This document shows positions 13,354-42,000 of a stretch of 64,000 bases of DNA, piece by piece. The first letter of the stretch is position 1. The number at the start of each line of letters is the position of its first letter. The notes under the pieces were generated by a model. The model was given only the letters and a program-made list of their open reading frames with translations. It was not told the DNA's origin and did no database searches. Source of the stretch: Alphaproteobacteria bacterium (GTDB lineage: Bacteria > Pseudomonadota > Alphaproteobacteria > JAJFIK01); contig JAJFIL010000306.1 of assembly GCA_021774965.1 (NCBI GenBank), positions 10,741 through 74,740 of the forward strand, given 5' to 3'. Position numbers and translations under genes: made by a program.

Positions 13354-13368
13354 GGGCTTGGCTCCTTC

Positions 13369-18049: not shown

Positions 18050-18063
18050 CGTTTGGACCTTTC

Positions 18064-25710: not shown

Positions 25711-26757
25711 ATGAGGAATCGCATGAGCTGGCTCGAGCAAATTTCTGAAATCGAGGCTTTGGAAGACGCAGAGCTTGATGGCGCTCTTATTGACAGGATG
25801 GAGGCCCAGGCGGCTCTCATCAAAAACCGGCCCATCCGCTTTTCGACCCCGACCTTCCGTGAGTACGAAAGCACCGAATTATCCGGCTGCGGCAAAAATA
25901 GTTTCCCCGCCTTTTCCATCACGGCGGGGGGCTGTGCGCTCAACTGCGATCATTGCCAGAAGAAGATCCTGGAGCCGATGATCCCGGCCACCAAACCTGA
26001 AATGCTGGATCAGAAAGTCCGTGATCTGATCATGATGCAGGGCCTTCAAGGGTTCCTTCTGTCTGGTGGCTCCAACAAACAAAATGAAATCCGCTACGAG
26101 CGATTTTATCCTGTCGTAGAAGGACTAAAGCGAGACTTCCCTGATCTCAAGATTGCCATTCACACAGCATTGACCGATGAAGCCGGTGCAAAGCGGATGG
26201 AATCTGCCGGTGTTGATACGGCCATGATGGATGTCATCGGATCCGATGAGACCATCAAGCAGGTATACAATCTTGACCGCCCAGTAGAAGACTTCGAAGC
26301 AACCCTCGCGGCACTTACCTCTACAAGCATGGAAATCTCACCGCACATCGTGGTGGGGCTGCACTATGGTGAGATCCTGGGCGAGGAACGGGCGTTGGAT
26401 ATTGTAGCGCGCCACGATGTGAATGCATTGGTGCTTGTGGTGATCATGCCGTTCTATGCCAAGCCTGGTACGTTTAAAACACCCTCCACCAGCGACGTGG
26501 GCAATATCTTTGTTGCTGCAAGGCAGCGTCTTGCGGACAAGCAAGTTCTTCTGGGTTGTGGCCGTCCGGCAGGCATGCACAAGCGCGTTACAGATGCCTA
26601 TGCGGTGATGGCGGGTATCGATGGCATTGCCTTTCCTGCGGATGGTGCTGTCGCTGTTGCGGAAAGCGTAGGCCGGCCGTTCGAGCAGGCTCACTCTTGT
26701 TGCTCGATCAAGCTTGGTGAAAACTCTGGCGCTGCCAAATCAGTTTGCGCTGCGTAG
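25711..26757 (+). CDS. Radical SAM protein, LipS1/LipS2-type (alternative lipoyl synthase component)
   Basis: 348 aa. CX3CX2C as CALNCDHCQ, an extra Cys 15 residues upstream, and a C-terminal CC pair (HSCCS). It lies in an operon with the lipoate ligase. Confidence 0.78.
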   Translation: MRNRMSWLEQISEIEALEDAELDGALIDRMEAQAALIKNRPIRFSTPTFREYESTELSGCGKNSFPAFSITAGGCALNCDHCQKKILEPMIPATKPEMLDQKVRDLIMMQGLQGFLLSGGSNKQNEIRYERFYPVVEGLKRDFPDLKIAIHTALTDEAGAKRMESAGVDTAMMDVIGSDETIKQVYNLDRPVEDFEATLAALTSTSMEISPHIVVGLHYGEILGEERALDIVARHDVNALVLVVIMPFYAKPGTFKTPSTSDVGNIFVAARQRLADKQVLLGCGRPAGMHKRVTDAYAVMAGIDGIAFPADGAVAVAESVGRPFEQAHSCCSIKLGENSGAAKSVCAA

Positions 26758-26784
26758 TCTCTCAAAAGTCATTAGGAAATAGAC

Positions 26785-28083
26785 ATGACGTGTTTGAAAC
26801 CTGAATCTACAATCCCAGGGGAAACCGGCGCCGGGGGAGGGGACTTTAACGCAGCCAGTGCCATGCACCCGCGCGCGCCAGAGGCAATCCCCAGCGATCT
26901 CAAAAACGGTGGTCGGGTAAAATCAAATTCCGTGGCGCCGGAAGGGCTCTATCTGCCCAACAGAAATATCCTGACCCCCCAGATGACTTCGCCTGAATAT
27001 GTTCAGCTCTCAACCGCTGCGGCCATCACCCTTGGCATCATGCCAGGAAAGATGCATGGCTGCGAATGCACGCGCTGTCTCAATATCCTGCTGACCTATC
27101 CTGAAGGCTGCCGTGCTAATTGCGCCTATTGCGGCCTTGCCCGCCACCGCGAGGCGGAGCGGGATTATGCGGACCGGAATTTCATTCGCGTGGATTGGCC
27201 TGCTGTTCCGATGGAACAAATTGCAGAAACGGTTGGCAAGGACCCGGAAGCCAGCCCGTTCCACCGCATGTGCATTTCCATGATCACGCATCCGAAGTCT
27301 GATAAGGATACAGTCTCTGTACTGAAGACCTGGACGAAATATGTAGACCCGGATGCGATCCCCATTTCCATTCTGTCCAACCCTACCACCATGGTCCGGG
27401 ACGATGTGCAAACCCTGCGAGATCTGGGCTCTGACATCTTCACCGTGGCGCTGGATGCAGCGACACCGGAGCTTTTTGACCGCACCCGCGGCAAGGGTGT
27501 TCAATCGCCTCATACCTGGAAAAAATACTGGGAAATTCTCGAAGACGCGCGGGACATTTTCGGGCCCCAGAAATTTGGCGCACATATCATTGTGGGCATG
27601 GGTGAGACCGAACAGGAAATTCTGACCCTCGTTCAGCGTCTGGTGGACATGGGCGGCCACAGTCACATGTTCTGTTTCTATCCCGAACAAGGCTCGCTGA
27701 TGGATCATTTGCCCGCCACCCCGCGCGACCAATGGCGGCGGGTTCAGCTGGCGCGCTATCTGATCGATTACTGCGACGTGCGCGTCGACCACATGAAATT
27801 CGACAGCGAAGGCCGGGTTGCTGATTTCGGTATTCCCAAGGCGGAGCTGGAAATTACCATCGATAGCGGCATTGCCTTCCGCACCAGCGGTTGTCCCGGC
27901 AAATTTGCTGAAGATATCTCTGCCTGTGACCGTCCGTATGGGGATAGTCCAGTTTCTGATATCGCCAGCTATCCCTTCCAGCCAGAGGGTGCGCATATGC
28001 GCCGCATCCGCTCGCAACTTGATATGTTGCGTCCTGGGGAAACCTATGAAGACGGCGAAGAATTCGAGGAGCTTGATAGTTGA
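26785..28083 (+). CDS. Radical SAM protein, LipS1/LipS2-type (second component)
   Basis: 432 aa. CX3CX2C as CRANCAYCG, preceded by an additional CECTRC cluster-like motif. Confidence 0.78.
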   Translation: MTCLKPESTIPGETGAGGGDFNAASAMHPRAPEAIPSDLKNGGRVKSNSVAPEGLYLPNRNILTPQMTSPEYVQLSTAAAITLGIMPGKMHGCECTRCLNILLTYPEGCRANCAYCGLARHREAERDYADRNFIRVDWPAVPMEQIAETVGKDPEASPFHRMCISMITHPKSDKDTVSVLKTWTKYVDPDAIPISILSNPTTMVRDDVQTLRDLGSDIFTVALDAATPELFDRTRGKGVQSPHTWKKYWEILEDARDIFGPQKFGAHIIVGMGETEQEILTLVQRLVDMGGHSHMFCFYPEQGSLMDHLPATPRDQWRRVQLARYLIDYCDVRVDHMKFDSEGRVADFGIPKAELEITIDSGIAFRTSGCPGKFAEDISACDRPYGDSPVSDIASYPFQPEGAHMRRIRSQLDMLRPGETYEDGEEFEELDS

Positions 28084-29183
28084 TGGGCAATCAATTCCGC
28101 ATCATTGATACGGGCGTTCGCGAAGGCCGCGCCAATATCGCGTTCGACCAAGCCATGATTGATGCGCGCCAGGAAGGCGCTATTCCTAACACCATCCGCT
28201 TTATTCATTTTCCCCCGACCGCTCTGGTGGGTCGCCATCAGGCATTGAGCCAGGAATTGAAAGTAGAGCAATGCAAAGCCAATGGGGTGGGTATTGTTCG
28301 GCGCATTACTGGCGGCGGGGCCATTTATTTGGACGAAGGCCAACTCGGCTGGGCCATCGTGTGTGATCGCGCCGCTTTGGGTGTGCCTGACTTAGGCGGA
28401 ATTACAAAAGCGATTTGCGAGGCCGCAGCATTCGGGCTTTCCAAGCTCGGCATTGATGCCCAGTTCCGTCCGCGGAATGACATTGAAGTGGACGGACGCA
28501 AGATCTCCGGGACCGGAGGGTTCTTTGACGGGGAAACATTGATCTTCCAGGGCACCGTGCTGATTGACCTTAACCCTAGCGATATGCTGGCAGCGCTTAA
28601 TGTGCCGGAAGTCAAACTTGCCAAACGCGACTTGGATAATGCCGCCGCCCGGGTGACTTGCCTTAAGGAATTGCTGGGCGAGGCCCCTTCCATGGAGGCG
28701 GTGAAGGGCGCCCTCATCGCCGGGTTTGAGGAAAAACTCGGCCTCACCGTAGAGCACAGCGAGCCCACGCAAGCAGAAGAAGATGCAGCCAAGCAGCTCT
28801 ATGACGAAGAGTTCGGCACGGACGAATTTGTCTATGAGATTGATGACCCTGCCCGAGAAAAAGGTGTCCGCATTGGTTCCTTCGTCGGAGCAGGCGGCAC
28901 CGCCACGGCGCATGTGCGCCTGGAAGGGGTTGGCGGGGACCGCATCCGCGAGGTGCTTCTTACCGGTGATTTCTTTATCGCACCGCCCCGCATTATCTTT
29001 GATCTTGAATCAAGTCTGCGCGGTGTGCGGGTGGAAAAGGCGGGCGAGCATATTGGTGAATTCTTTGAGGAGGCCAATGTGAGCTTGCTCTCCATCACGC
29101 CTTCGGATTTTGCCGCAGCAGTTGATATCGCCACGGGCCAGCGCGCACCGCAGGCAGCTGCCACCAGCGAGCCAGCCACGTGA
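28083..29183 (+). CDS. Lipoate-protein ligase with fused C-terminal accessory domain, sLpl(AB)-type
   Basis: Motifs IRFIHFPPTALVGRHQ, RRITGGGAIYLD and GRKISGTGG (LplA catalytic Lys region). About 367 aa, long enough to include the LplB-like domain. The ATG overlaps the upstream TGA. Confidence 0.85.
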   Translation: MGNQFRIIDTGVREGRANIAFDQAMIDARQEGAIPNTIRFIHFPPTALVGRHQALSQELKVEQCKANGVGIVRRITGGGAIYLDEGQLGWAIVCDRAALGVPDLGGITKAICEAAAFGLSKLGIDAQFRPRNDIEVDGRKISGTGGFFDGETLIFQGTVLIDLNPSDMLAALNVPEVKLAKRDLDNAAARVTCLKELLGEAPSMEAVKGALIAGFEEKLGLTVEHSEPTQAEEDAAKQLYDEEFGTDEFVYEIDDPAREKGVRIGSFVGAGGTATAHVRLEGVGGDRIREVLLTGDFFIAPPRIIFDLESSLRGVRVEKAGEHIGEFFEEANVSLLSITPSDFAAAVDIATGQRAPQAAATSEPAT

Positions 29184-29917
29184 AGACCCTTACGGTACTT
29201 CAGCATACATCCGCAGAATACCTGGGCTTGCTGGAAGACCATTTCGAAGGTCGCCGCATTCGGTTCAATTATGTGCGCCCTTTTACCGAAGGCGTTACCA
29301 TTCCCAATCCACAAGTGATCGGCGATGGCCTTGTGCTTCTGGGCGGGGGGCCGTGGGGTTCTGCCGGAGGGCAAGTGGGTTCTGCAGGCGCGCGTGATGT
29401 TCCCACGTTGGAGAAAGAAGTCCTGGTCGCCAAAGCCTGTTTGATGATGGGCAAACCGATCATCGCTTTTGGGCTGGGGGCTCAAATCTTGTGTCTTGCC
29501 GCGGATGGCGGCGTTGAGGTGGCTCCGCTTGTCTTTGAAGCAGGTTTTGCAACCCGTACGGATGATGAGGCCCTAAACGGTTATTTACCGGCGCGCTTCC
29601 CCCATGTGACCTACATGCGGGATCGTCCGGTTCCGCCGGACTATGCGCAAATTCTTGCGGTCGATAGTCACAATCGCCCTGCGGTCTTTCAGATCGGCGA
29701 AAAGGCGTTTGGCTTTACCGGGCATCCCGGTTTCAAGCTGGCCATGGCTGAAGATTTGATCATGGAGTTTGAGGAGTGCCCGGAAGAGACCGCAAAACCC
29801 ATTTCCGAATTGAGGGAAATGAAGGGGGAAATCGAAGATGCGCTGGTCTCGATTATGACAGGCCTTGTCCAGAAAACCGGGCTTATGGACAGCTCAGACG
29901 ATAAGTCAAAATCCTAA
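29180..29917 (+). CDS. Class I glutamine-amidotransferase-like protein lacking the catalytic Cys and Glu
   Basis: 245 aa. The nucleophile-elbow position reads FGLGAQ (Leu where G-x-C-x-G has Cys). The HPE position reads FGFTGHPGF (Gly for Glu). GTGA start/stop overlap with the ligase gene. Confidence 0.7.
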   Translation: MKTLTVLQHTSAEYLGLLEDHFEGRRIRFNYVRPFTEGVTIPNPQVIGDGLVLLGGGPWGSAGGQVGSAGARDVPTLEKEVLVAKACLMMGKPIIAFGLGAQILCLAADGGVEVAPLVFEAGFATRTDDEALNGYLPARFPHVTYMRDRPVPPDYAQILAVDSHNRPAVFQIGEKAFGFTGHPGFKLAMAEDLIMEFEECPEETAKPISELREMKGEIEDALVSIMTGLVQKTGLMDSSDDKSKS

Positions 29918-29941: not shown

Positions 29942-29957
29942 ATTAGACTTGTCTAAT
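29942..29957. promoter_or_regulatory. Perfect 16-bp palindrome ATTAGACTTGTCTAAT upstream of dsrE3-shdr; candidate operator
   Basis: Read directly from the sequence. It lies in the 150-bp gap between the lipoate module and the shdr operon, about 110 bp before the dsrE3-like start. Confidence 0.35.
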
Positions 29958-30067
29958 AAACTACCCTGAGCGGGCGCAAATATCGCCTAATGCTCTGTAT
30001 TTTGGGCATTTTTTGAAATAATCAACGGCGCAAAAATGCGCTACTATTGACCGGGAGGTTGGGACAA

Positions 30068-30448
30068 ATGTCCAACAGCAAACTTGTAATTATTATGGCG
30101 AATACCAATCCATCTCACCGCGAAGAACTCGGGGCCCCTATTTTTCAGGCCACCGTCGCTGCTGCCATGGAATATGAAGTCGATGTGATCTGCACCGCCG
30201 CCTCTGGCATTCTGATGAAAGTAGGCGAAGCAGAAAAGCTGACCATCAAGGAAGGCTCCCCCAAGACCGTTTATGATTTTATCAAAGATGCTCATGAAGC
30301 GGGTGTGAAGTTTTACAGCTGCTCCCCCAATCTTGAACTTTTCGACATGGAACCTGGTGATTTGATCCCAGAGTGCGAAGGCCTTGTGGGTGGTGCGCAC
30401 CTGATCGAAATGGTCATGGAAGACGACTGCGAAGTTCTGACCTACTAA
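30068..30448 (+). CDS. DsrE-family sulfur-relay protein, DsrE3-type
   Basis: 126 aa from the ATG with a GGGAGG RBS. Begins MSNSKLVIIMANTN and has the conserved Cys in KFYSCSPN. First gene of the shdr operon. Confidence 0.8.
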   Translation: MSNSKLVIIMANTNPSHREELGAPIFQATVAAAMEYEVDVICTAASGILMKVGEAEKLTIKEGSPKTVYDFIKDAHEAGVKFYSCSPNLELFDMEPGDLIPECEGLVGGAHLIEMVMEDDCEVLTY

Positions 30449-30472
30449 GTCAGTTGAGATCTGAGGGACTGG

Positions 30473-31222
30473 ATGTCACACGCGACAACATCACGTAAGC
30501 AGGAACACATCGGCGATCCGGTATCGGACAAACCGCCGGTTTCCCGGGACAAGCTTGAGGAAATCTTCCAGGATATCCAGGCGGACCTGCGCTATGACTT
30601 CGAGCTCAATGGATGTTTGAACTGCGGCATCTGCACGGCAACGTGCCCCTCCGCTCACTATTACGATTACTCCCCTCGCGAGATTGTTCAACTTCTGTGG
30701 ACGGAGAATCTGGAAGGCATCTATGATGCCATGCAGGAAAAGATCTGGTCCTGCGCTCAGTGCTACACTTGCGCCGCGCGCTGCCCGTTTGGGAATTCCC
30801 CGGGCGGGCTGGTGATGTTGATGCGCGAAGTGGCCATCAAGCACGGGATGGAATCAGCCAAGAACGTGCTGCGTCCGTTCTCCCGCGTGATGCTGAAGCT
30901 GATCTCGACCGGCAACCAACTCTCCCCCGATATGATCAACCCGGATCACTTTGCCGACTGGGGCCCGAATATCTCGAAGATCGATGCGCCTCTTGCTGTC
31001 TTAAGACGCGCCATTCCCATGCCGACCCTGAACACGATCAAGACCGCCTGGGAAGTGAACCTGAAAACATCCGTGGAGCTTTACACCATCTGGGAAGCCA
31101 GCGGTGTTCTCGATCAGCTGGAGACGATCGATGAAGATCTCTTCGACGTCATTACCGACATCATGGATGAGAAACGTGAAGACTGGGACGATTTCCTGGA
31201 AGAGCAGGAAGACGAGGACTAA
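30473..31222 (+). CDS. hdrC1: sHdrC1, heterodisulfide-reductase-like FeS subunit C
   Basis: Two ferredoxin-type motifs, CLNCGICTATCP and CAQCYTCAARCP, and an acidic C-terminal tail. Confidence 0.85.
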   Translation: MSHATTSRKQEHIGDPVSDKPPVSRDKLEEIFQDIQADLRYDFELNGCLNCGICTATCPSAHYYDYSPREIVQLLWTENLEGIYDAMQEKIWSCAQCYTCAARCPFGNSPGGLVMLMREVAIKHGMESAKNVLRPFSRVMLKLISTGNQLSPDMINPDHFADWGPNISKIDAPLAVLRRAIPMPTLNTIKTAWEVNLKTSVELYTIWEASGVLDQLETIDEDLFDVITDIMDEKREDWDDFLEEQEDED

Positions 31223-31280
31223 GCCTCGACTAACCTGCCGTATCGGAAATTGAACTCACGAGTTGAGGAAGGAAGAGAAA

Positions 31281-32639
31281 ATGGACAACACCAAAGAACC
31301 CGGCGAACGCTTTACAGGCCATGGCTCCGAGTGGCGAGATTCCAATCTCAGTACGGAAGATGCCACCCGCGCTACAGCCTGGGTTGAGCAAAAGATCAAC
31401 AAACGCTCCATGCTCACCAACAAGGATCGCGTCCATGATGTTCGCGATATCATGTGGGACCTGGAAAAAGACGGCGAGATCGTCGTTCATCGGGTCAAGG
31501 ACGAGCATGAGCCCGTCATGGCCAAGACCCTTTATGGCTGGGACAAGAAAATCCCAACCAATCAGCTGTGGCATCACAAATCCTGCGGCCAGTGCGGCAA
31601 TATCCCGGGCTATCCGGCGTCTCTTCTGTGGCTGATGAACGAGCAAGGCACGCGCTATCTCGACGAGACGGATCAGACCTCGTGCACAGCGTGGAACTAT
31701 CACGGCTCAGGCATTGGCAACATCGTCAGCCTTGCCGCTGTCTTCCTGCGCAATTTCCACCAAGCTTATGTTTCAGCAAAAGCCGAAGGTCTCGACGAAG
31801 GCTATTACTATCCGCTGGTTCACTGCGGCACGTCTTTTGGCAACTACAAGGAAGTGCGCGAGTACCTGATGCATTCCGCCGAATTGCGCGAGCAGGTCAA
31901 AGTCATCTTGGGCAAGCTGGATCGTCTTGTGGACGGCAAGCTGCTGATCCCCGAAGAGATCGTGCATTATTCTGAGTGGACGCACGTCATGCGCCACAAG
32001 ATCGCGGAACGTCAGACAATCGACGCCTCAAACATCCGTGCCACCGTTCACTCTGCCTGTCACGTCTACAAGATGGTGCCGCAGGATGTGATCTATGATG
32101 ATGACGTGCTGGACGGCGAGCGGGTTGCTGTCTCCACCGGCATCATGGAAGCGCTTGGTGCTCAGGCCATCGACTATTCCACCTGGTATGATTGCTGCGG
32201 CTTTGGTTTCCGCCACATTATTTCCGAGCGGGAATTCACGCGCTCCTATGCCATTGATCGCAAGATCAAGGTCATGGTGGAAGAAGCCAACTCAGACGTT
32301 CTGATCGGTCACGATACAGGCTGCATTACCACGTTTGACAAGAACCAGTGGATCGGCAACGCCAAGGGCGAAAGCTACGATCTGCCGGTTCTCGCCGATG
32401 TACAGTTCGCAGCATTGGTGTGCGGCGCGCATCCATACAAGATTGTGCAGTCTCATTGGCATGCGTCATCGACAGAAAAACTGTTTGAAAAGCTCGGCAT
32501 AGATTGGCGGGCAAAGAAGGCAGAGTTTGAAGACTATCTGAAACAAATCGAGGCCGGTGGTGCGCAGGAGAATCTCTATGATCCTCGTCGCATGATCACT
32601 GGTGGCCCCGGATATCAAAAGATTGAACAGGTAAAATGA
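31281..32639 (+). CDS. hdrB1: sHdrB1, CCG-domain subunit
   Basis: About 452 aa from the ATG with a GAGGAAGGAAG RBS. CCG motif WYDCCGFGFRH. Confidence 0.85.
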   Translation: MDNTKEPGERFTGHGSEWRDSNLSTEDATRATAWVEQKINKRSMLTNKDRVHDVRDIMWDLEKDGEIVVHRVKDEHEPVMAKTLYGWDKKIPTNQLWHHKSCGQCGNIPGYPASLLWLMNEQGTRYLDETDQTSCTAWNYHGSGIGNIVSLAAVFLRNFHQAYVSAKAEGLDEGYYYPLVHCGTSFGNYKEVREYLMHSAELREQVKVILGKLDRLVDGKLLIPEEIVHYSEWTHVMRHKIAERQTIDASNIRATVHSACHVYKMVPQDVIYDDDVLDGERVAVSTGIMEALGAQAIDYSTWYDCCGFGFRHIISEREFTRSYAIDRKIKVMVEEANSDVLIGHDTGCITTFDKNQWIGNAKGESYDLPVLADVQFAALVCGAHPYKIVQSHWHASSTEKLFEKLGIDWRAKKAEFEDYLKQIEAGGAQENLYDPRRMITGGPGYQKIEQVK

Positions 32640-33685
32640 CGAAAACCGTTCTTGTTGTAGGGGGCGGGCCAGCCGGGCTGTCCACCGCTCACGCTCTGGC
32701 TCAGGCCGGTCAACATGTGACCCTCGTGGAAAAGGAAGATCGCCTCGGCGGTGCACCTATCCTTGATGGCTATGCCAAACTTGTTCCTTCCGGGGAATGG
32801 GCGAAGGATGCCATCGGCGGCATGGTGGATCGGGTGACCGACAATCCGAATGTCGATGTGCGACTGAACACCAAGGTGGACAAGTTCGACGGCGAGATCG
32901 GTAACTTCACCGCGGCCTTGTCCGACGGCCAGCAAGTCGAAGCGGCCTCAACGGTTCTCACCACCGGCTTTACTCACTTCGATAGCATCAACAAGCCCGA
33001 GTGGGGCTTTGGCATGTACCCCGACGTGGTCACCACCACGCAAGTAGAACAGATGATTTCTTCGGGCAACGGCGTGCGTCGTCCTTCCAATGGCGAAAAG
33101 CCAAAGCGCGTTGCCATCCTGTTGTGCGTGGGCTCCCGCGACCGGCAGATCGGCCGTGAGTGGTGCTCCAAGATCTGTTGCACCGTTTCTGCAAATCTGG
33201 CCATGGAAATTCGCGAAGAGCTGCCCGACTGCCACGTCTATGTCTATTACATGGACATCCGCACCTTCGGATTGTTGGAGACCAAATACTACTGGCGCTC
33301 TCAGGAAGAGTTCAAAGTTAAATACATCAAGGCACGGATCGCTGAGGTCACGTCAGACGGCGACAAGGTCATCGTCAAAGGCGAAGACACGCTTGTTAAA
33401 CGCCCCATCACCATTCCTTTTGACATGGTGGTGCATGCAATTGGTATGGACCCTAATGTGGACAACATGCTGATCTCCACGATCTTTGACGTGAAGCTGG
33501 AGCCAAACGGTTTTCTTGACCGGGAAAATTCCTATGCCGGCATGGGTGCAACAAACCGCCCCGGCGTTTTCGTTGCAGGCTCTGCCACTGGCCCTGAAAC
33601 CATTGACGACAGCATCGCCCAAGGTCAGGCGGCAGCTATCTCGGCACTGAACGTGGCGCGCGGCACAGCATCGGCAGCGGAGTAA
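32636..33685 (+). CDS. hdrA: sHdrA, short FAD/[4Fe-4S] flavoprotein
   Basis: 349 aa. Dinucleotide fold VLVVGGGPAGLS and cluster ligands CVGSRD ... WCSKICC. ATGA overlap with hdrB1. Confidence 0.9.
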   Translation: MTKTVLVVGGGPAGLSTAHALAQAGQHVTLVEKEDRLGGAPILDGYAKLVPSGEWAKDAIGGMVDRVTDNPNVDVRLNTKVDKFDGEIGNFTAALSDGQQVEAASTVLTTGFTHFDSINKPEWGFGMYPDVVTTTQVEQMISSGNGVRRPSNGEKPKRVAILLCVGSRDRQIGREWCSKICCTVSANLAMEIREELPDCHVYVYYMDIRTFGLLETKYYWRSQEEFKVKYIKARIAEVTSDGDKVIVKGEDTLVKRPITIPFDMVVHAIGMDPNVDNMLISTIFDVKLEPNGFLDRENSYAGMGATNRPGVFVAGSATGPETIDDSIAQGQAAAISALNVARGTASAAE

Positions 33686-33694
33686 CCAGCACCC

Positions 33695-34567
33695 ATGGCC
33701 TCGTTCTTCTCCAATCGCAACGCTCGGAGCACTGCCAAGACCCATGAGGTCCTGGAGCGCCCAACCCTCGACTTGAGCGGGCCGGCATTGAGCTATGCGT
33801 TGGAGCAATTAGGCGCGGGATGTGAAGCGGAAGGCGGCATCGACCGTTTTGTCATGGCGCTGAAACTGCGCGGTGATGCGTTCAAGGATATATTGCTGGA
33901 CAAGCCCATGGCAGACGTCACGGCGGAAGAGTTCGCTTCTTTGACGACCTTCATGCCAACGGTGCGCCGACGTATTGGACCCTATCTGGAACCACTTTTG
34001 TTTCCAAAACTCCAAAGTACCTTGGCGACGCTTCTTGAGGGCACCCACGAGCCCACCAAAGTAGACGCGCGTATAGAGGCGTTCTGTACGTCTTATCCAG
34101 CTGACAAGGCCCACCGCTGGGTCAGAGATCTGGCGGCAGAGGTTCTTCATGCGACAGATTCTGATCGCATCCCGCTTATGTGTCGCTGGGTCTGGAACGA
34201 GAAATCCAACACCGGCGTTTTGCGCGAGATTTGGCATGGAGATGTGGATGGCGAGACCATTCGCATCGCGGATAATTACGCGACCTTTGTGATGCTGCGC
34301 GAGGAGCTGTCCCAGTTTCTGACTTCCAAAGGCGTATTTCAGGAAGTGGCCTGCTATATCGATCTAATGTGCGCGCAGGTTTATGCCGAATACATTTCTG
34401 CGCAAGGCGGCAGCTATTTGCGGGCAGATTTTTCGGCGGCAGATGACCCCATGGCCCATGTGCGCCGCCTGTTGGGGCTTGATGGTGTGAAGGCCAAACT
34501 GAACGTAGACAACAATGACAGACAAAATGGTGCGAGTGAAATCACTGCGCTTGTTGAGGGGAGATAG
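33695..34567 (+). CDS. Conserved hypothetical protein embedded in the shdr operon (hyp)
   Basis: 290-aa clean ORF in the canonical position between shdrA and shdrC2. No recognisable cofactor motif. Confidence 0.7.
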   Translation: MASFFSNRNARSTAKTHEVLERPTLDLSGPALSYALEQLGAGCEAEGGIDRFVMALKLRGDAFKDILLDKPMADVTAEEFASLTTFMPTVRRRIGPYLEPLLFPKLQSTLATLLEGTHEPTKVDARIEAFCTSYPADKAHRWVRDLAAEVLHATDSDRIPLMCRWVWNEKSNTGVLREIWHGDVDGETIRIADNYATFVMLREELSQFLTSKGVFQEVACYIDLMCAQVYAEYISAQGGSYLRADFSAADDPMAHVRRLLGLDGVKAKLNVDNNDRQNGASEITALVEGR

Positions 34568-34573
34568 GGCTTA

Positions 34574-35359
34574 ATGCCTATCCATGAAAAAAGCCTGATC
34601 CGGCCAGAGGACCTTACGACCCACGATGATTTGGTCATCGATGGCATTGATGTGTCTGGCGACTGGAGCACCTTCATTAATACCCGCGTTGTGGCGGACT
34701 ACAATGAAGAGATGCAGGATGAAATCGCGGCCCTGCCCGGCGGGGAATACATTCATCGCTGCTGGCAATGTGGGTCTTGCACCAACGCATGCACCATCAA
34801 TGAGCTTAATCCTGATTTTAATCCACGGTACTGGATCTATTTGATCCGCATGGGATATGAATCCGAACTTCTGCGCGACAAGGACCTGATCTGGCAATGC
34901 GTGTCGTGCAATAAATGCACGTCTGCCTGTCCGCGCGATGTGGTGCCGGAAGGCGTCATGAAGGCGACTGCGCACTGGCTGGAGTTGAAAGGCCATACGG
35001 CGAAAACGCCGTCCACAGAGTTTGACGAAGAGTTCAGCCATCAGGTCTTCAAGACCGGCAAGATTGAAGATGGAGAGGTCTTCCTGGGCTTTTTCAAACG
35101 CACAGGCCAGAGCCCTTTTCAGGACTGGATTTTCCAGATGGGCAAGCAGTTGGCGTTCAAGTTTCCCATCACCATGTTGATCAAGATGGGCTGGGCAACC
35201 CTGTTCCACCCTCGCACCCGGAATTGGGGCCCGGCGCGCGATGCCATCAACGAATATATCGAAGAACAGGAAGCAGAGATCAGATTGACGCTCAAACTTG
35301 ATGAGCCCAAGCCTGCTGCCGACAAAGATCCCGCACCTACACAACAAGCGGCTGAATAG
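34574..35359 (+). CDS. hdrC2: sHdrC2
   Basis: Motifs CWQCGSCTNAC and CVSCNKCTSACP. Confidence 0.85.
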   Translation: MPIHEKSLIRPEDLTTHDDLVIDGIDVSGDWSTFINTRVVADYNEEMQDEIAALPGGEYIHRCWQCGSCTNACTINELNPDFNPRYWIYLIRMGYESELLRDKDLIWQCVSCNKCTSACPRDVVPEGVMKATAHWLELKGHTAKTPSTEFDEEFSHQVFKTGKIEDGEVFLGFFKRTGQSPFQDWIFQMGKQLAFKFPITMLIKMGWATLFHPRTRNWGPARDAINEYIEEQEAEIRLTLKLDEPKPAADKDPAPTQQAAE

Positions 35360-35370
35360 GACGAGTACAG

Positions 35371-36300
35371 ATGAGCGAAAAGAAATACAAAAGTGTTGCC
35401 TACTACCCCGGCTGTGCGCTGGAGGGAACGGGCCATGCCTATAACCGCTCTACCAAGGCCCTTGGCAAAACCCTTGGACTGAAACTTGACGAGGTCAAGA
35501 ATTGGAACTGTTGCGGGGCCATGGAAGTCAAGAACACGGACCCCAAGCTTCAGACCTATTTGTCGTCACGGGTGATGTCGATTGCTGCCAATGAGATGAA
35601 ACATGATGTGGTGATGGCGCCCTGCAATGGTTGTTATCATAATCTCAAAAAGGCGGAATACGATCTCACCAATGATGAGGACTCGCGCGCCGTCACCGCG
35701 CGTCTTTCAGAGAAAGCAGGCCATGAGACCTATAAGGCCGGGCAGATTGAAACCATCCACGCGCTGGATTGGATCAAGGATGCCATCGGTGAAGATGGTC
35801 TTCGCGAACGGGTGCGGAACTCCCTCAATGGTCTGAAGGTCGCGAACTACTACGGCTGCATGTACACGCGCCCTCGCCACATCTTCCCCGAAAAGGATCA
35901 GGGGGAGGGAAGTGAGTCGACCTCCAAGCCTCACTTCATGGATGATCTGCTGGAAGCTGCTGGCGCTGACAATGTGGACTTCGCCTTGAAGACAGCATGC
36001 TGTGGCGGTGCTCATACGCTTTCTGACTCAGATACGTCGACGAAACTGGTGCTGAATATTATTGAAGCGGCGGAAGAGTCCGGGGCCGAGGTGATTGCCA
36101 CCGAATGTCCGACCTGCCACACGGGACTTGAGATGCACCAGATTCGGGCCGAGAAGGTTCTGGGCCGAAAGACAAATGTGAAAATCGTCTATTTCACTCA
36201 ATTGCTGGGTCTGGCCATGGGGCTTTCCCCGCGCAAGGTGGGCCTGCAGGAAAATATCTCCAACTCCCATTCTCTGTTTAAAGCCAAGGGCATCGCATGA
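35371..36300 (+). CDS. hdrB2: sHdrB2, double CCG-domain subunit (probable catalytic noncubane FeS site)
   Basis: 309 aa. Motifs WNCCGAME, TACCGGAH and CPTCH. Confidence 0.88.
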   Translation: MSEKKYKSVAYYPGCALEGTGHAYNRSTKALGKTLGLKLDEVKNWNCCGAMEVKNTDPKLQTYLSSRVMSIAANEMKHDVVMAPCNGCYHNLKKAEYDLTNDEDSRAVTARLSEKAGHETYKAGQIETIHALDWIKDAIGEDGLRERVRNSLNGLKVANYYGCMYTRPRHIFPEKDQGEGSESTSKPHFMDDLLEAAGADNVDFALKTACCGGAHTLSDSDTSTKLVLNIIEAAEESGAEVIATECPTCHTGLEMHQIRAEKVLGRKTNVKIVYFTQLLGLAMGLSPRKVGLQENISNSHSLFKAKGIA

Positions 36301-36725
36301 AGACGCTCCAGGCCATTGAAGCTCAGATCGAAAGCTGGGAGCCAGACGTTGAAAACGCCGAGACCCAGGCGGCCGAGCTGTTGACGCTTGCCGAGACGAT
36401 ATTGGAAAACTGGCTTGTGGCCCATGAGCGCAACCCAAAGGACGAAGTGCGCGAGGGGTTTTACCTCCTGTCGCTGCACCGTCAGTCGGCCAAGGGCGAT
36501 CCCAGTTTCAATGCCTGCCGGGAGACCTGCCGGGAGTTGGCTTTTCGCTTCAATCTCATTAAAACGGATTCGGAAGCTGCGGAGACCGAGCAGCGCCTTG
36601 TGATGATGCGGCGACTTGCCCACCATCTGGTGTTGTTTGTTTCTGGTAAGCTGCAAGTCGCAGAGCTTGGCGAGTTTTGCTGTGCTTCGCGCCCGTTGCG
36701 ACAAACTGCGGAAACTCCGCGCTAA
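36297..36725 (+). CDS. Unassigned 142-aa protein between shdrB2 and lbpA
   Basis: ATGA overlap with the hdrB2 stop. Predicted helical. Cysteines occur in NACRETCRE (CX3C) and FCCAS. I do not recognise the family. Confidence 0.55.
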   Translation: MKTLQAIEAQIESWEPDVENAETQAAELLTLAETILENWLVAHERNPKDEVREGFYLLSLHRQSAKGDPSFNACRETCRELAFRFNLIKTDSEAAETEQRLVMMRRLAHHLVLFVSGKLQVAELGEFCCASRPLRQTAETPR

Positions 36726-36742
36726 TATAGGTGACCAAAACC

Positions 36743-37183
36743 ATGACTGATGTACGCGGATGCCACCTCGAAGATAGTCTTCTCTATGACGTGGAAAACC
36801 ACATCTGGTTCAAGGAGCTGGATGATGGAAAGGTGAAACTGGGCATGACCACAATCGCCACGGCCATGGCCGGTGAGATTGTAGCCTTTACCCCTAAAAA
36901 AGTTGGTCGTTCGGTTAAGGAGGGCAAATCCTGCGGCACCGTCGAATCAGGCAAATGGGTGGGACCAGCCAAATCTGCTGCTGCTGGTGAGGTTATCGAG
37001 GTCAATGAGGCGCTTGTGGCCAAGCCAAACATGGCTAATGAAGATCCGTATGATACGGGCTGGATGGTGATTTTGGCCCCGGAAAACTGGGATGCAGTCA
37101 AAGGCACGTTAACCCCAGGAACAGAAGTTGGCCCCAAATATGAGGCCAAAATGGAAGCTGACGGTTTCGAAGGTTGCGGATAG
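36743..37183 (+). CDS. lbpA: LbpA, GcvH-like lipoate-binding protein of the sHdr system
   Basis: GcvH fold length. The lipoyl-Lys context CGTVESGKWVGP fits the ESxKW type found in LbpA rather than glycine-cleavage H. AGGTGA RBS lies before the ATG at 36743. Confidence 0.85.
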   Translation: MTDVRGCHLEDSLLYDVENHIWFKELDDGKVKLGMTTIATAMAGEIVAFTPKKVGRSVKEGKSCGTVESGKWVGPAKSAAAGEVIEVNEALVAKPNMANEDPYDTGWMVILAPENWDAVKGTLTPGTEVGPKYEAKMEADGFEGCG

Positions 37184-37261: not shown

Positions 37262-37633
37262 ATGGATCAGTTGTCAGAAATGAGTATGGAAAGTATGGCG
37301 GAAAATGCCGGTCAGGCATCGACCCTTCTTCGCTCCATGGCAAATCAGACGCGACTGATGATTCTCTGCCAGTTGGTGGATGGTGAAAAATCAGTTCGGC
37401 AATTGCATGAGACGATCCCGCTTAGCCAATCCGCTCTCTCTCAGCACTTGGCGATTTTGCGCCGGGAACGTCTGGTCTCAACCTCGCGCGTTGCCCAGTC
37501 TGTTTTCTATTCCCTCGCCAGCACAGATGTGGAAGCGGTGCTCTCGACGCTCTATGGGATTTATTGCGTAGCTCCGAATTTAGAGCCCGATGGGGAAGCA
37601 AAAGACGCCCCGACAGATACGCCTTCTGAATAA
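37262..37633 (+). CDS. ArsR/SmtB-family regulator with a conserved Cys pair (sHdrR/SoxR-like)
   Basis: 123 aa. Motifs RLMILCQLVDGEKSV, QSALSQHLAILRRERLV (wHTH) and LYGIYCV. Confidence 0.85.
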   Translation: MDQLSEMSMESMAENAGQASTLLRSMANQTRLMILCQLVDGEKSVRQLHETIPLSQSALSQHLAILRRERLVSTSRVAQSVFYSLASTDVEAVLSTLYGIYCVAPNLEPDGEAKDAPTDTPSE

Positions 37634-37651
37634 TTCTGAAGGCTCTTGCGC

Positions 37652-37948
37652 TTATCGGCAGCAGTAGATCCCGTGCAGAACTTCAATAACCCGCTGGGCT
37701 TCATCGCCTTTGAGTGAATAATAGATCGTCTGTCCGTCGCGGCGCGTTTTCACCAGCCCATCTTTCCTCAAGATCGCCAATTGCTGTGAAGCATTGGTCT
37801 GACTGACGTTCAGAAGCTGACGCAAGGCGCTGACGCTTTTTTCTCCATCCACAAGCTGACACAGCAACATAAGGCGCTTTTCATTGGCCAGCGCCCCCAT
37901 CAGATCAGCCGCGTCCTTGGCTGAATTTTTGAGATTTGTTACATTCAT
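37652..37948 (-). CDS. Second ArsR/SmtB-family regulator, paralogue of the first
   Basis: 98 aa from MNVTNLK. Motifs RLMLLCQLVDGEKSV, QTNASQQLAILRKDGLV and LHGIYCC. It is convergent with the first regulator and divergent from the RND operon. Confidence 0.85.
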   Translation of the reverse strand: MNVTNLKNSAKDAADLMGALANEKRLMLLCQLVDGEKSVSALRQLLNVSQTNASQQLAILRKDGLVKTRRDGQTIYYSLKGDEAQRVIEVLHGIYCCR

Positions 37949-38053
37949 ACTTGCGTATATACAAAGTATCGCATATACAGTCAAGAACTGAATTCTGGCA
38001 AACTTTATCCGTGCCGAATCAGGCTCTCTTTGGTGCGCAAAAAGGATAGCGGC

Positions 38054-39070
38054 ATGTTCAAGACACATTGGTTTCTAGCTGGCTTCGCGGCTTTGGCCTT
38101 CAGCCTCAGCGCGAGCGTAGGTCACGCCCAGAACGAGAGCGCCGTAACCCTGGAAATCCAGGTGGAGACGATTTCGGACTTCAAGGCAGTTTACGCCACG
38201 GTGCAGAGCCAGGATGTGATCGCCGCGCGGGCACGCATCGGCGGAACCATCGCCACTTTGAACGTGGATGACGGCGACAATGTCGAAGGGGGCTCAACCC
38301 TTGCCGTGGTCATTGATGACCGACTGGCTCCCCAAGTGCGCGCGCTGGATGCTCAAGTTGCCGCAACGACCGCAGAGCTGCGCCAGGCGCAATCTGATCT
38401 GGATCGCGCGCGGCAGCTATTTGACCGAGGCGTCATTGCTCAGGCCCGCCTTGATGAAGCAAGCACCCACGTGGACATTGTCACCGGTCAGCTGAACGTG
38501 GTGCGACAGGAACGCAGTGTTCTTATTCAACAGCAACAAGAAGGCGAAGTATTGGCCCCCATGACCGGCGTGGTTCTCAACGTCATGGTCACGGAAGGCA
38601 CAGTCGTCTTTGCCGGTGAGCCCATCGCCAATGTGGCGTCAGAGAATTATGTGCTGCGTCTTCGCCTGCCCGAACGCCACGCGCGCTTCATGGCGGAAGG
38701 CGAAGCGGTGCGGATCGATCAATCCGCTTTGAGTGAAACAACGTCCGATATGATCTCGGAAACCGGCATCATCAGCCAGATCTATCCTGAGATTATCGAT
38801 GGCCGGGTCGTGGCCGATGCGGAAGTTGAAGGCCTGGGAGAATTCCTTGTGGGCGAGCGGGTCCGCGTCTGGGTATCTGCTGGTCAGCGCCAAGCGATCC
38901 TGGTGCCCGGCGATTACATCCACACACGCTATGGCGTTGATTTTGTAACCCTCCTCTCCGGCGATGGAGGTCATCACGAGATGATCGTGCAACGGGGGCG
39001 CGGGGGCGATGAAGGGCGCGTTGAAATTCTTGGCGGTCTTGTCGCCGGTGACGTGATTGTAGCGCCATGA
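38054..39070 (+). CDS. Efflux RND periplasmic adaptor (MFP/HlyD family)
   Basis: Signal peptide MFKTHWFLAGFAALAFSLSASVGHA, a coiled-coil hairpin region, and beta-barrel-like C-terminal domains. Confidence 0.85.
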   Translation: MFKTHWFLAGFAALAFSLSASVGHAQNESAVTLEIQVETISDFKAVYATVQSQDVIAARARIGGTIATLNVDDGDNVEGGSTLAVVIDDRLAPQVRALDAQVAATTAELRQAQSDLDRARQLFDRGVIAQARLDEASTHVDIVTGQLNVVRQERSVLIQQQQEGEVLAPMTGVVLNVMVTEGTVVFAGEPIANVASENYVLRLRLPERHARFMAEGEAVRIDQSALSETTSDMISETGIISQIYPEIIDGRVVADAEVEGLGEFLVGERVRVWVSAGQRQAILVPGDYIHTRYGVDFVTLLSGDGGHHEMIVQRGRGGDEGRVEILGGLVAGDVIVAP

Positions 39071-42000
39071 AGAGCGACATGAAAAAGGGCCTCTCCGGCT
39101 TTCTCACCGAGCGCTTTATTGCCTCAAAGCTCACGCCGCTCATCCTGATCGCATCGTTCGCGCTTGGGCTCTTGGCTCTGTTCACGATCCCGCGGGAAGA
39201 AGAGCCGCAGATCACGGTGCCCATGGTGGATATCTTTGTTCGCGCTGATGGGCTGAGCGCGGCGGATGCGGTCGAGCTGGTCACCGAACCCCTTGAAGCG
39301 ATCATCAAAAGTATCAATGAAGTCGAACACGTCTATAGTCAGACCCAAGATGATCAGGTGGCCATCACCGCGCGCTTCTTTGTGGGCACGGATGCTGACG
39401 ATGCCATTTTGCGTGTGCATGAGGAAATCCGCGCCAATATAGGCCATATCCCCCACGGTATTCCCGAACCCCTGGTCGTGGGGCGCGGTATCAATGATGT
39501 AGCGATTGTGGTGGCAACCCTTAGCCCGGCACCGGAGGCTTCTGATCGTTGGACAGGCACGGCGCTTTATGATGTGGCCGAAGAATTGCGCGTGGAGCTA
39601 TCCACTCTGGAAGAGGTGGGGCTGACATATCTTGTGGGCGGCCAGCCCAGTCAGATCCGCATCGAGCCTGATCCAGAACGGCTTTCCATGTATGGGGTTA
39701 CGCTGCAGCAATTGGCGCGCAAGATTTATGACGCCAATCGATCCTTTGTGACCGGTCAGGTGCGTGAGCTTAACCGCACCCTTCCCGTGGTTGCGGGGCA
39801 GACCCTGGAAGGCATTCCCGACATTGGCTTGTTGCTTGTCACCACCCGCGAAGGTCGCCCGGTCTATGTCCGGGACGTGGCCGATGTTGTTGTGGGCGGG
39901 GCTCCCGCCGATACCGGCGTGTGGCATCTCGCGCGCCAGGAGGAAGAGACAAGCTGGTCCCGCACCCCTGCCATATCGGTTGCCATTGCAAAACGCGAAG
40001 GGGCAAATGCGGTCCTCGTGGCTGAACGCACCATCGAGCGTCTGGAACACCTGCACGGAACGCTGATCCCTCATGACATTGAGATCAACATCACCCGCGA
40101 TTACGGCGAGACAGCGAATGAGAAAGCCAACGAGCTTTTGTTTCACCTGGGCCTGGCGACGCTCTCTATCGTTCTGCTGGTAACTTTCGCTGTGGGTTGG
40201 CGCGAAGGTATTGTCGTTCTTGTTGTTGTGCCGGTCACAATTTTGCTGACGCTTTTTGCCTCCAACCTCATGGGCTACACGATCAACCGAGTCAGCCTGT
40301 TCGCGCTCATCTTTTCCATCGGGATCCTGGTGGATGATGCCATCGTGATGATCGAAAACATCGCCCGCCACTGGGCGATGGCCGATGACCGACCGCGGAT
40401 GAAAGCCGCCATTGATGCGGTGGCGGAGGTGGGCAACCCGACTATCCTTGCCACGCTGACGGTGGTGGCAGCCCTGTTGCCCATGCTTTTTGTCTCCGGT
40501 CTCATGGGCCCTTACATGGCACCCATCCCGGTGAACGCCTCAGCCGCCATGATCTTTTCCTTCTTTGTGGCTGTTATCATTGCCCCGTGGCTCATGCTGA
40601 AGCTGGGTGGTGCGGGAGGATCATCAGCGGGCGGCCATCATGAATCTGAAGCGGGCGGCGTGTTCGGGAAATTATATCGCCGAGTCGCCAGCCCCATTAT
40701 CGCGTCGAAGAAATCTGCCTGGATATTTCTCCTCTCGGTCGGCGTTGCCACCCTTGCCTCCATGGCGCTGGTGGGAATTGGCGCTGTGTCAGTAAAGCTT
40801 TTGCCCTTTGACAATAAGTCTGAAATCCAGGTGGTGGTGGACCTGCCCGAAGGCTCAAGCCTGGAGGGAACCGAACGCGTGCTCGCCAATGCGGCGACAC
40901 TCTTGCTGGAAGTGCCGGAGATTGTTTCCATACAGAGTTATGCCGGAACTGCGGCGCCCTTTAACTTCAACGGTCTTGTGCGGCACTATTATGTGCGGAT
41001 CTCCCCGGAGCTTGGCGATTTGCAAGTCAACCTTACACCAAAGGGAGACAGAAGCCGTACTTCGCACACCATCGCCCTTGAAATTCGCGAACTGCTGGCA
41101 TCATTGGAGACGCCGGAAGGAACTGCCGTGGCAGTGGTCGAGGTGCCGCCGGGACCACCGGTTCTGGCAACGCTTCTTGCGGAGATTTATGGTCCGGATG
41201 CGGAAACCCGCCTTAGCGTGGCTCGCCAGGTGCGAGAGATCTTTGAGGAAACGCCCTTTATTGTTGATGTGAATGACAGCATGGGCGCGCCTGCCCCGCG
41301 CCTTCACCTGGAGATCGATCAGGACAGTCTTGAGTTCTTCGGGGTGGAGCAGGCGGATGTCTATGACACGCTGGAGCTTTTGCTCAATGGTATGACGGTT
41401 GGCTATTCCCATCGGGGCGGTGGTCGTAATCCTGTTGAGATTGCAGTTGAATTGCCCAATAGCGATCTAAGCTGGGGAGAGCGTCTTGCCTCAACCCCCA
41501 TCCCGGCCAACGCGCTGCCGGGGGATCGCCGGATTGCCGAGCTTGGTGATGTTCTTCAGGCCAGCACTCAGGAAGGCAGCTTGAATATTTATCGCCGCAA
41601 CGGGCGTTATGTGAACATGGTCATGGCCGAACTTGCGGGCCGTTATGAGGCTCCCATCTACGGCATGCTGGAAGTTCAAAACAGGATTGCGGAAATGGAA
41701 TGGCCCGAAGGTCATCGCCCCGAAATCCTCATGCATGGTCAACCGGACGATGAAAGCCACCCTTCTTTGCTGTGGGATGGGGAATGGGAAGTCACTTATG
41801 TGACCTTCCGCGATATGGGCGCTGCCTTCATGGTGGCCTTGCTGGGGATTTATTTTCTGGTGGTGGTCCAGTTTGGATCGTTCAAACTGCCATTGGTTAT
41901 TCTCACACCGGTACCTTTGACGCTAATCGGCATTATGATTGGTCACTGGATCTTTGGCGCGGCGTTCACCGCCACCTCCATGATCGGATTTATCGCGCTG

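Follow-up and report, generated by a model that had tools for sequence, protein, structure and literature searches.

Does a run of nine genes on an alphaproteobacterial contig encode a complete and intact sHdr-LbpA sulfur-oxidation system, or do its HdrABC-type subunits belong to a complex of another kind? The genes occupy positions 30068-37183 of a 64,000-nucleotide stretch of DNA, hereafter the window, which covers positions 10,741 to 74,740 of contig JAJFIL010000306.1 (Alphaproteobacteria bacterium, GenBank assembly GCA_021774965.1). All coordinates given below are positions in the window. A previous interpretation of these genes, made by a model from the letters and the list of open reading frames (ORFs), is referred to as the sequence-only reading. 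We consider it very likely that 30068-37183 is an orthologous, complete, and intact type I sHdr-LbpA sulfur-oxidation locus. It is a typical copy of a system that has already been described and not a novel system type.

Gene Order and Distribution of Related Loci

The nine ORFs of the locus are all on the forward strand and follow the order dsrE3C-shdrC1B1A-H-C2B2-I-lbpA. Membership in type I is assigned by a syntenic shdrC1B1AHC2B2 (PMC11094781), and this core was found here in a single syntenic cluster. The order of genes in the window was an exact match to that of the Hyphomicrobium denitrificans construct reported in 2018 (dsrE-hdrC1B1A-hyp-hdrC2B2-hyp-lbpA; PMC6067878). Family matches agreed with the gene order and labels of the sequence-only reading for all genes, with two ORFs having no family. 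Its interpretation of the genes as an sHdr-LbpA core operon is borne out by the type I rule, the published order, the match to the solved sHdrA structure 6TJR, and the ligand residues described below, all of which agree. No sequence feature at odds with the type I sHdr-LbpA explanation was found.

sHdr systems are known from 397 GTDB assemblies (PMC11094781). We fetched 80 related loci via an alignment of sHdrH, with at least 410 confirmed matches in the scan, and aligned orthologs of every protein. The order of the shdr core was repeated in more than 60 related loci. A wider layout, with tusA and dsrE2 on one side and HDAC-lipS1-lipS2-slpl(AB)-lipX-dsrE3C-shdr-lbpA-arsR on the other, recurred in dozens of loci from Alpha-, Beta-, and Gammaproteobacteria at 45-92% identity. 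The closest assemblies by identity of the core proteins were GCA_054033475.1 (69-94%) and Hyphobacterium lacteum (62-92%), a member of the Maricaulaceae and the nearest named genome.

An intact cluster might still be cryptic or dispensable, i.e., a recently acquired or silent copy in a cell where Sox or rDsr proteins encoded elsewhere perform the oxidation. The occurrence of the locus type in three proteobacterial classes at similar identity is compatible with lateral spread, and the part of the genome in view was a 64-kb window. However, the locus contains no frameshifts or internal stops, all ligand residues and the lipoyl-lysine are intact, and the guanine-cytosine content of the locus (0.53-0.56) is the same as in the remainder of the window. 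The coupling overlaps and a candidate upstream operator are conserved, and linkage of the cluster extends to dedicated regulators, predicted genes for lipoylation, and a SoeABC-like enzyme, which makes a cryptic copy highly improbable.

Core Subunits and Their Cofactor Ligands

The shdrA gene (32636-33685) encodes a flavin adenine dinucleotide (FAD)/[4Fe-4S] flavoprotein of 349 amino acids (aa) that aligned over residues 3-344 with 6TJR_A, the crystal structure of H. denitrificans sHdrA (E = 3.3e-177). Residues C164, C177, C181, and C182 did not vary among the orthologs (76/76), and GGGPAG was conserved as well. This protein thus has the type I trait of an FAD protein of ~350 aa with one [4Fe-4S] cluster, as in 6TJR. 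Methanogen-type HdrA, on the other hand, is 640-670 aa long and contains N-terminal, inserted, and C-terminal ferredoxin domains. When sHdrA was compared to methanogen HdrA chains of 643-671 aa, the match was limited to about residues 315-577 of the latter, and thus, the extra ferredoxin domains of methanogens are absent from sHdrA. NCBIfam scores were 185-235 versus cut-offs of 1100-1400. The end-to-end alignment to 6TJR and the partial match to methanogen HdrA uphold the earlier description of a short HdrA without additional ferredoxin domains.

Of the two B subunits, sHdrB2 (35371-36300) is the canonical one. It is an HdrB-like protein with two full CCG domains (PF02754, E = 8e-24, two stretches), aligned full length to the methanogen HdrB chains 9sfi_C and 5odc_B (E ~ 1e-34), and its ten cysteines (2 x 5) were invariant in 69/69 orthologs. 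sHdrB1 (452 aa, 31281-32639, in an ORF that opens with TTG at 31263) is the proposed catalytic subunit and matched the HdrB model over residues 97-410 (E = 2.5e-30). In the alignment to methanogen HdrB chains from the PDB, its N-terminal CCG domain has C102, C105, C135, and C182 with no CC pair, and its C-terminal CCG domain has C260, C305, C306, and C348, with the invariant D345 in place of the first cysteine of the CX2C of methanogen HdrB. Nine cysteines together with T136, S185, and D345 were invariant in 68/68 orthologs. sHdrB1 can therefore be described as a paralog with an altered yet conserved cysteine pattern and is a proposed binder of two noncubane clusters. The sequence-only reading had placed CCG motifs in both B subunits, and CCG/HdrB family matches were indeed obtained at 31263-32639 and 35371-36300.

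Both C subunits are ferredoxin-like and carry two [4Fe-4S] ferredoxin motifs each, as type I sHdr requires. sHdrC1 (30473-31222; Fer4_8, E = 2.7e-10; HdrC models, E ~ 1e-24) aligned to methanogen HdrC 7bkb_C over both motifs, with 8/8 cysteines invariant in 62/62 orthologs. sHdrC2 (34574-35359; Fer4_8, E = 3.1e-10) also aligned to 7bkb_C over both cluster motifs, and all eight of its cysteines were invariant in 76/76 orthologs. Two CX2CX2CX3CP motifs had been ascribed to each protein. This is accurate for both motifs of sHdrC1 and for the second motif of sHdrC2, but the first motif of sHdrC2 is CX2CX2CX3C-T (CWQCGSCTNAC-T), the threonine (T74) being invariant in 76/76 orthologs.

The first gene of the locus, dsrE3C (30068-30448), encodes a sulfur transferase of 126 aa (PF13686 DrsE_2, E = 3.9e-9). 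Its active-site Cys85, located within YSCSP, was invariant in 61/61 orthologs. Residue 84 is serine in the window protein and cysteine in 58/61 orthologs. The literature describes the relay to the sHdr complex by a DsrE3C with a conserved cysteine (Cys84 in the H. denitrificans protein) and a TusA with CPxP, where x is Leu or Ile (PMC11094781). The window encodes both a DsrE3C with the conserved active-site cysteine and a TusA with CPLP. Replacement of Cys83, the equivalent of Ser84 here, by serine in H. denitrificans DsrE3C resulted in slower thiosulfate oxidation (PMC11094781).

The motifs quoted in the sequence-only reading (WYDCCGFGFRH, WNCCGAME, TACCGGAH, CVGSRD...WCSKICC, and ESGKW) were all located in the translations. 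Loss of cysteine ligands on careful alignment had been named there as grounds for giving up the assignment; instead, all ligands were present and were invariant in 62-76 orthologous loci.

We also considered whether the genes could encode a different CCG/HdrABC-type complex: a true heterodisulfide reductase acting on the disulfide of coenzyme M (CoM) and coenzyme B (CoB), CoM-S-S-CoB; a type II sHdr; or an oxidoreductase of the Flx, Qmo, Lut, or GlcF type. The NCBIfam models for HdrA, HdrB, and HdrC, as well as QmoC, GlcF, TfrB, and SdhE, matched significantly at sub-threshold scores, and among solved structures, methanogen Hdr provides the nearest B and C subunits. The resemblance to methanogen HdrABC (5ODC, 7BKB, 8RVU) extends to both CCG noncubane-cluster motifs of sHdrB2, both ferredoxin motifs of C1 and C2, and the thioredoxin-reductase-like FAD/[4Fe-4S] core of sHdrA. 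However, the matches were far under the curated cut-offs (for HdrA2, 234.9 versus 1100). The HdrA in the window lacks ferredoxin domains and is half as long as its methanogen counterpart, the B and C subunits each occur as two paralogs, and the ligands of sHdrB1 are altered. sHdrH, sHdrI, and LbpA are extra relative to methanogen HdrABC, the oxidative direction has been proposed, and there is no CoM/CoB context. Type II sHdr (shdrC1B1AHB3-etfAB-emo) shares sHdrC1, B1, A, H, and LbpA with the window, but its hallmark is sHdrB3, a fusion of C2 and B2, with etfAB-emo in the cluster (PMC11094781). In the window, C2 and B2 have a gene each, and neither sHdrB3 nor Etf/EMO genes were detected in 17-42 kb. 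Finally, the predicted lipoylation genes, DsrE3C, and TusA are present alongside sHdrH, sHdrI, and LbpA, and form I RuBisCO is encoded by the host, a proteobacterium. A complex of another CCG/HdrABC type is extremely unlikely and is effectively refuted by these membership tests.

LbpA and the Subunits sHdrH and sHdrI

The last gene of the locus, lbpA (36731-37183), encodes a GcvH-like lipoate-binding protein (PF01597, GCV_H, E = 2e-31). The lipoyl-lysine, Lys75, lies within TVESGKW, and T-x-ESGKW was invariant in 65/65 orthologs, which agrees with the ESGKW context pointed out earlier. LbpA proteins are distinguished by strictly conserved N- and C-terminal cysteines that are not found in GcvH (PMC6067878). 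The window protein belongs to the GcvH fold family and has both of these cysteines in addition to the lipoyl-lysine; Cys11 was conserved in 65/65 and Cys149 in 64/65 orthologs. Scores against the gcvH equivalog models were below cut-off (106 versus 117 and 71 versus 116).

Two proteins of the locus had no Pfam or NCBIfam family: the "hyp" and "orf142" of the sequence-only reading. The former is sHdrH (33695-34567), a soluble protein of 290 aa, and the latter is sHdrI (36297-36725), a helical bundle of 142 aa. Both names were taken from the literature, where the functions of the proteins are given as unknown (PMC11582611). Homologs numbered 3888 for sHdrH and 4363 for sHdrI. The AlphaFold2 model of sHdrH was all-alpha (predicted local distance difference test, pLDDT, 77) and had no fold match in the PDB (template modeling score < 0.2). 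The model of sHdrI (pLDDT 89.5) comprised five helices, with confidence low in the tail that begins at about residue 125, and the PDB search with it yielded nothing significant, the best matches being generic or HEPN-like helical bundles (E > 0.3). As these fold searches gave no significant match, no function could be deduced from the folds of sHdrH and sHdrI. Among the sHdr subunits, sHdrA was the only one for which a solved structure was found in the PDB. The remark in the sequence-only reading on open questions of substrate and electron acceptor is in line with this and with the status of sHdrH and sHdrI in recent literature.

In sHdrI, C74 and C78, which form a CX3C motif, were nearly invariant (68/68 and 64/68 orthologs, respectively), and the C-terminal tail, GEFCC(A/S)SxPxR, was conserved with an invariant C128-C129 pair. 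In having a compact domain and a cysteine-bearing tail, sHdrI recalls DsrC and SoxY, although this is a resemblance only. A profile search of 1.84 billion representatives delineated a narrow family with 159 matches. Fusions present in the database (four CCG(B2)-sHdrI and one sHdrI-GcvH) are weak evidence only, because frameshifts in short metagenomic contigs, at the 4-bp overlap described below, may have produced them artificially. Together with the conserved B2-sHdrI junction, these few fusions hint that sHdrI partners with sHdrB2. Based on the CX3C motif, the CC tail, and the coupling, sHdrI may pair with sHdrB2 through a cysteine arm, as a DsrC-like partner.

Gene Junctions and Translational Coupling

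Two junctions of the locus are 4-bp ATGA overlaps: B1/A at 32636-32639 and B2/shdrI at 36297-36300. Both had been reported in the sequence-only reading and were recovered in the sequence. Start/stop overlaps of 4 bp were frequent at the same junctions of related loci (B1 to A in 40/68, B2 to shdrI in 57/67), and coupling at these two places is thus a conserved feature of the family. An overlap was also seen between C2 and B2 in 14/68 loci, was rare at the remaining core shdr junctions, where short gaps predominated, and was most conserved between B2 and sHdrI.

The remaining gaps depend on the start codons. With the longest ORFs, they ranged from 5 to 40 bp, which is slightly different from the 6-40 bp stated before. 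The most likely start of shdrB1 is the ATG at 31281, which follows GGAAGGAAG and gives a protein of 452 aa, the length annotated for the closest relative; the C1-B1 gap would then be 58 bp. LbpA probably starts at the ATG at 36743, following AGGTGA, rather than at the GTG at 36731. The resulting protein would have 146 aa, as in the closest relative, and the gap after shdrI would be 17 bp. The earlier conclusion that the tight spacing implies stoichiometric co-expression was overstated. The complex predicted for these proteins is sHdrAA'C1B1C2B2 (PMC11094781), and as it holds two A subunits per B1, coupling does not imply a 1:1 ratio.

Predicted Lipoylation Genes and an HDAC-Like Hydrolase

A block of genes predicted to serve LbpA lipoylation is located upstream of dsrE3C on the forward strand (24446-29917) and consists of a gene for a histone deacetylase (HDAC)/AcuC-like zinc hydrolase followed by lipS1, lipS2, slpl(AB), and lipX, an order conserved in related loci. 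LipS1 (25711-26757, E = 5e-57) and LipS2 (26785-28083, E = 3e-55) were the best full-length matches of their genes, at scores under the curated cut-offs. The product of slpl(AB) (28080-29183) matched LplA-B_cat (E = 4e-44), with lipoyltransferase/LplB as the best full-length match, which was below the curated cut-off, and lipX (29180-29917) encodes a GATase-like protein. The start/stop overlaps lipS2/slpl(AB) and slpl(AB)/lipX are the same as in the published cluster of H. denitrificans. No lipT, the gene for an FAD oxidoreductase, was present between lipS1 and lipS2 (25711-28083), unlike in H. denitrificans and related loci L082-L084; the electron donor of LipS1/S2 must be encoded elsewhere.

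The HDAC/AcuC-like protein (24446-25570, in an ORF that opens at 24380; Hist_deacetyl, E = 4e-67) was nearest to Aquifex HDLP (1C3R, E = 7e-56). It keeps the THHG histidine pair, DLDAHHGDG, GADSLHGD, and GGGGY, which we take to be the catalytic and zinc-binding motifs of HDACs. Its gene was immediately 5' of lipS1 in 25/25 related loci with sufficient upstream sequence, as well as in 3/3 contigs sampled independently via HDAC homologs. In all three of these contigs, lipS1 and lipS2 flanked a gene for a LipT-like FAD oxidoreductase, and in one of them the lip block was downstream of shdr. A role of the HDAC-like protein as a substitute for LipT was ruled out, since other loci have both genes. 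The sHdr and lipoate literature that we searched contained no mention of a deacetylase, and the absence of the gene from the model organism may explain this silence. That the HDAC-like protein is an undescribed dedicated component of the LbpA-lipoylation module is possible but rather doubtful, the DsrC-like partnership of sHdrI with sHdrB2 being the second possibility. In that case, the protein would be an N6-acyl-lysine amidohydrolase acting on Lys75 of LbpA, where it would edit or recycle the acyl group by removal of acetyl, octanoyl, or damaged lipoyl groups.

A Candidate Operator and Two ArsR-Type Repressors

A perfect palindrome, ATTAGACTTGTCTAAT (ATTAG-N6-CTAAT), is located at 29942-29957, 111 bp 5' of dsrE3C. 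It has 7-bp arms, and its 3' arm extends into a -10-like TAATAA. Allowing for up to one mismatch, ATTAG-N6-CTAAT occurred at five sites in the window compared to 0.61 expected, and 0/100 shuffles reached five. The other sites are upstream of lipS1 (25695-25710), in the divergent region between dsrE2 and the HDAC-like gene (24349-24364), 76 bp upstream of the SoeA-like gene (21963-21978), and at 7873-7888, where the match is probably due to chance. Together with the site at dsrE3C, the first three of these are in promoter regions of sulfur genes. In 54/64 related loci, which span three proteobacterial classes, the 150 bp upstream of dsrE3C contained the palindrome (shuffle mean 0.5), and it was absent from internal operon junctions (0-1 loci). 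The HDAC-like gene appears to be co-regulated with shdr via this candidate operator. An inverted-repeat search with a minimum length of 8 excludes the candidate operator, as its arms are 7 bp long. The sole match of that search, GCATTTTT/AAAAATGC at 30006-30039, was not conserved in relatives and was discarded.

Two ArsR/SqrR-type repressor genes are located downstream of lbpA. Repressor 1 (37262-37633, forward strand) is sHdrR/SoxR-like, with matches to HTH_5 (E = 3e-13) and, above cut-off, to HTH_metalloreg (78 bits versus 55); its Cys36 and Cys102 were both invariant in 44/44 orthologs. Repressor 2 (37652-38068, reverse strand, probable ATG at 37948) is a paralog that is 44% identical to repressor 1 and has Cys70 and Cys136. 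In both proteins, the cysteines are spaced by 66 residues, equal to the spacing of Cys50 and Cys116 of H. denitrificans sHdrR, which form a sulfur bridge. The repressors scored above the HTH_metalloreg cut-off. They are not BigR itself, because their scores against the BigR equivalog were 82 and 95 versus a cut-off of 155.

The two arsR paralogs are convergent and are separated by a hairpin with 11-bp arms (37621-37643). The second and an RND efflux pair (38030-42276) point away from each other, and the ORF of the pair overlaps that of arsR2 when the latter is taken in its long version.

Electrophoretic mobility shift assays with SoxR of H. denitrificans showed binding to two fragments, lipX-dsrE3C and one upstream of lipS1 (PMC10451225). 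Since these fragments are homologous to the regions that contain the palindrome here, the adjacent ArsR/SqrR-type repressors with two cysteines probably use ATTAG-N6-CTAAT as their operator.

Neighboring Genes for Sulfur and Carbon Metabolism

The tusA gene (23488-23715; CPLP motif; TusA, E = 1e-17) and dsrE2 (23752-24267; SulfCarrDsrE2, 217.6 bits versus a cut-off of 210) form a pair on the reverse strand that is divergent to the lip block and keeps this position in many related loci. Next to it, on the same strand, is a gene for a FadL/TodX-family outer-membrane protein (22109-23407), and such genes recur next to shdr loci in many relatives. The protein may correspond to LipY, a "putative fatty acid transporter" (PMC10332631), or provide an uptake route for hydrophobic sulfur.

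A three-subunit molybdoenzyme (17099-21887, reverse strand; 1023, 251, and 316 aa) had Pfam matches to Molybdopterin, Fer4_11, and DmsC. This architecture agrees with that of SoeABC, in which a Mo-bisPGD subunit is joined by an FeS and an NrfD-like membrane subunit. The A subunit has no hydrophobic twin-arginine translocation signal, and the closest solved relative of the enzyme was PsrA (2vpw). The same neighborhood is also present in related locus L083. The enzyme is probably SoeABC, i.e., a sulfite:quinone oxidoreductase facing the cytoplasm.

A Calvin-cycle operon is located at 6790-15472 on the reverse strand and includes genes for a HAD phosphatase, CbbS and CbbL of form I RuBisCO, fructose-bisphosphate aldolase, transketolase, phosphoribulokinase, and fructose-bisphosphatase, with a divergent LysR/CbbR gene. 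The presence of this operon in the window makes the host probably a sulfur-oxidizing autotroph. The rhodanese-like Rhd442 has a family relative in the window, a DUF442 (PF04273) protein encoded at 4904-5500 on the forward strand, in which a CQSSNR loop is present. We ruled out that it is the cytoplasmic Rhd442, as its signal peptide, which contains a lipobox (LGGC), makes a periplasmic location probable. Scans of the 64-kb window with Rfam models and for transfer RNA genes gave no matches.

Several observations weigh against the interpretation of the region as a type I sHdr-LbpA sulfur-oxidation system. LipS1 and LipS2 scored under the NCBIfam curated cut-offs (193.5 versus 230 and 187.6 versus 270, respectively). 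Promoter and terminator scans of 23.4-38.2 kb gave 10 and 24 predictions compared to 8.6 and 15.4 in shuffles and thus no usable operon boundaries. The SoeABC label is derived from the architecture, the missing signal peptide, and the palindrome shared with the shdr region, with PsrA as the closest solved relative. No sox genes and no SoxT importer were detected in the 64-kb window.

A further question is whether the complex has a role other than dissimilatory oxidation to sulfite, e.g., in the detoxification or homeostasis of persulfide, in a reductive process, or in lipoate redox reactions. The substrate and the electron acceptor of sHdr are still biochemically undefined, sulfide detoxification is also under the control of regulators of the SqrR/BigR class, to which those in the window belong, and an RND efflux system adjoins the latter. 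In H. denitrificans, however, thiosulfate oxidation to sulfite and sulfate depends on the orthologous genes, lbpA and dsrE3C among them (PMC11094781, PMC6067878, PMC11582611), and the linked SoeABC-like enzyme and Calvin-cycle operon fit an energy-yielding oxidation. Such another role seems highly improbable for this type I sHdr-LbpA locus.

Comparison with Known Systems and Proposed Function

The locus of H. denitrificans (Hden_0683-0696) has the order lipS1-lipT-lipS2-slpl(AB)-lipX-dsrE3C-shdrC1B1AHC2B2-shdrI-lbpA2, with the regulators sHdrR and SoxR. The window shares with it the order from lipX to lbpA, the closely matching sHdrA, the overlaps around slpl(AB), and two paralogous two-cysteine ArsR repressors. 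The stretches upstream of lipS1 and of dsrE3C are bound by regulators in H. denitrificans and contain the candidate palindromes in the window. There are also differences. In the window, the lip block lacks lipT and is headed by the HDAC/AcuC-like gene, a divergent tusA-dsrE2 pair is found upstream, and a SoeABC-like enzyme is linked. There are no adjoining sox, soxT, or rhd442 genes, and both regulators are downstream of lbpA. Positions 84/85 of DsrE3C read Ser-Cys and not Cys-Cys. H. denitrificans lives as an obligate chemoorganoheterotroph, whereas a Calvin-cycle operon is present in the host of this locus.

The rDsr/DsrC pathway is comparable in that a TusA/DsrE-type persulfide relay supplies a cytoplasmic oxidizing enzyme that releases sulfite. 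SoeABC reportedly oxidizes the sulfite from the rDsr pathway. No dsrAB or dsrC is present here, however, and the carrier would be lipoylated LbpA, and perhaps also sHdrI, but not DsrC.

By analogy with H. denitrificans and Aquifex, sulfane sulfur would arrive in the cytoplasm as a protein persulfide and be relayed by TusA, DsrE2, and DsrE3C to sHdrAA'B1C1B2C2, which together with lipoylated LbpA would oxidize the protein-bound sulfur to sulfite. Catalysis has been proposed for sHdrB1, which would hold non-canonical noncubane clusters, and disulfide reduction for sHdrB2, which has the canonical double CCG. Electrons would pass through sHdrC1 and sHdrC2 to the FAD/[4Fe-4S] protein sHdrA. LbpA itself would be lipoylated by sLpl(AB), LipS1, and LipS2, which are encoded directly upstream. 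When sulfane sulfur is missing, the downstream two-cysteine ArsR-type repressors would probably hold the unit off at 29942-29957, and a sulfur bridge between the two cysteines of the repressor would lead to its release from ATTAG-N6-CTAAT. We infer, beyond these analogies, that the sulfite would be passed on to the SoeABC-like enzyme, with the electrons feeding an autotrophic metabolism, since the Calvin-cycle operon is in the same window.

The locus very likely adds one more intact copy of type I sHdr-LbpA, from a host that would be an autotrophic marine-type alphaproteobacterium. Because the sequence is that of a typical member, it has no bearing on the questions of substrate, electron acceptor, and structure. 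For specialists, it offers as leads the candidate operator ATTAG-N6-CTAAT, the conserved coupling of sHdrB2 and sHdrI, and the lip-linked hydrolase of the HDAC family.

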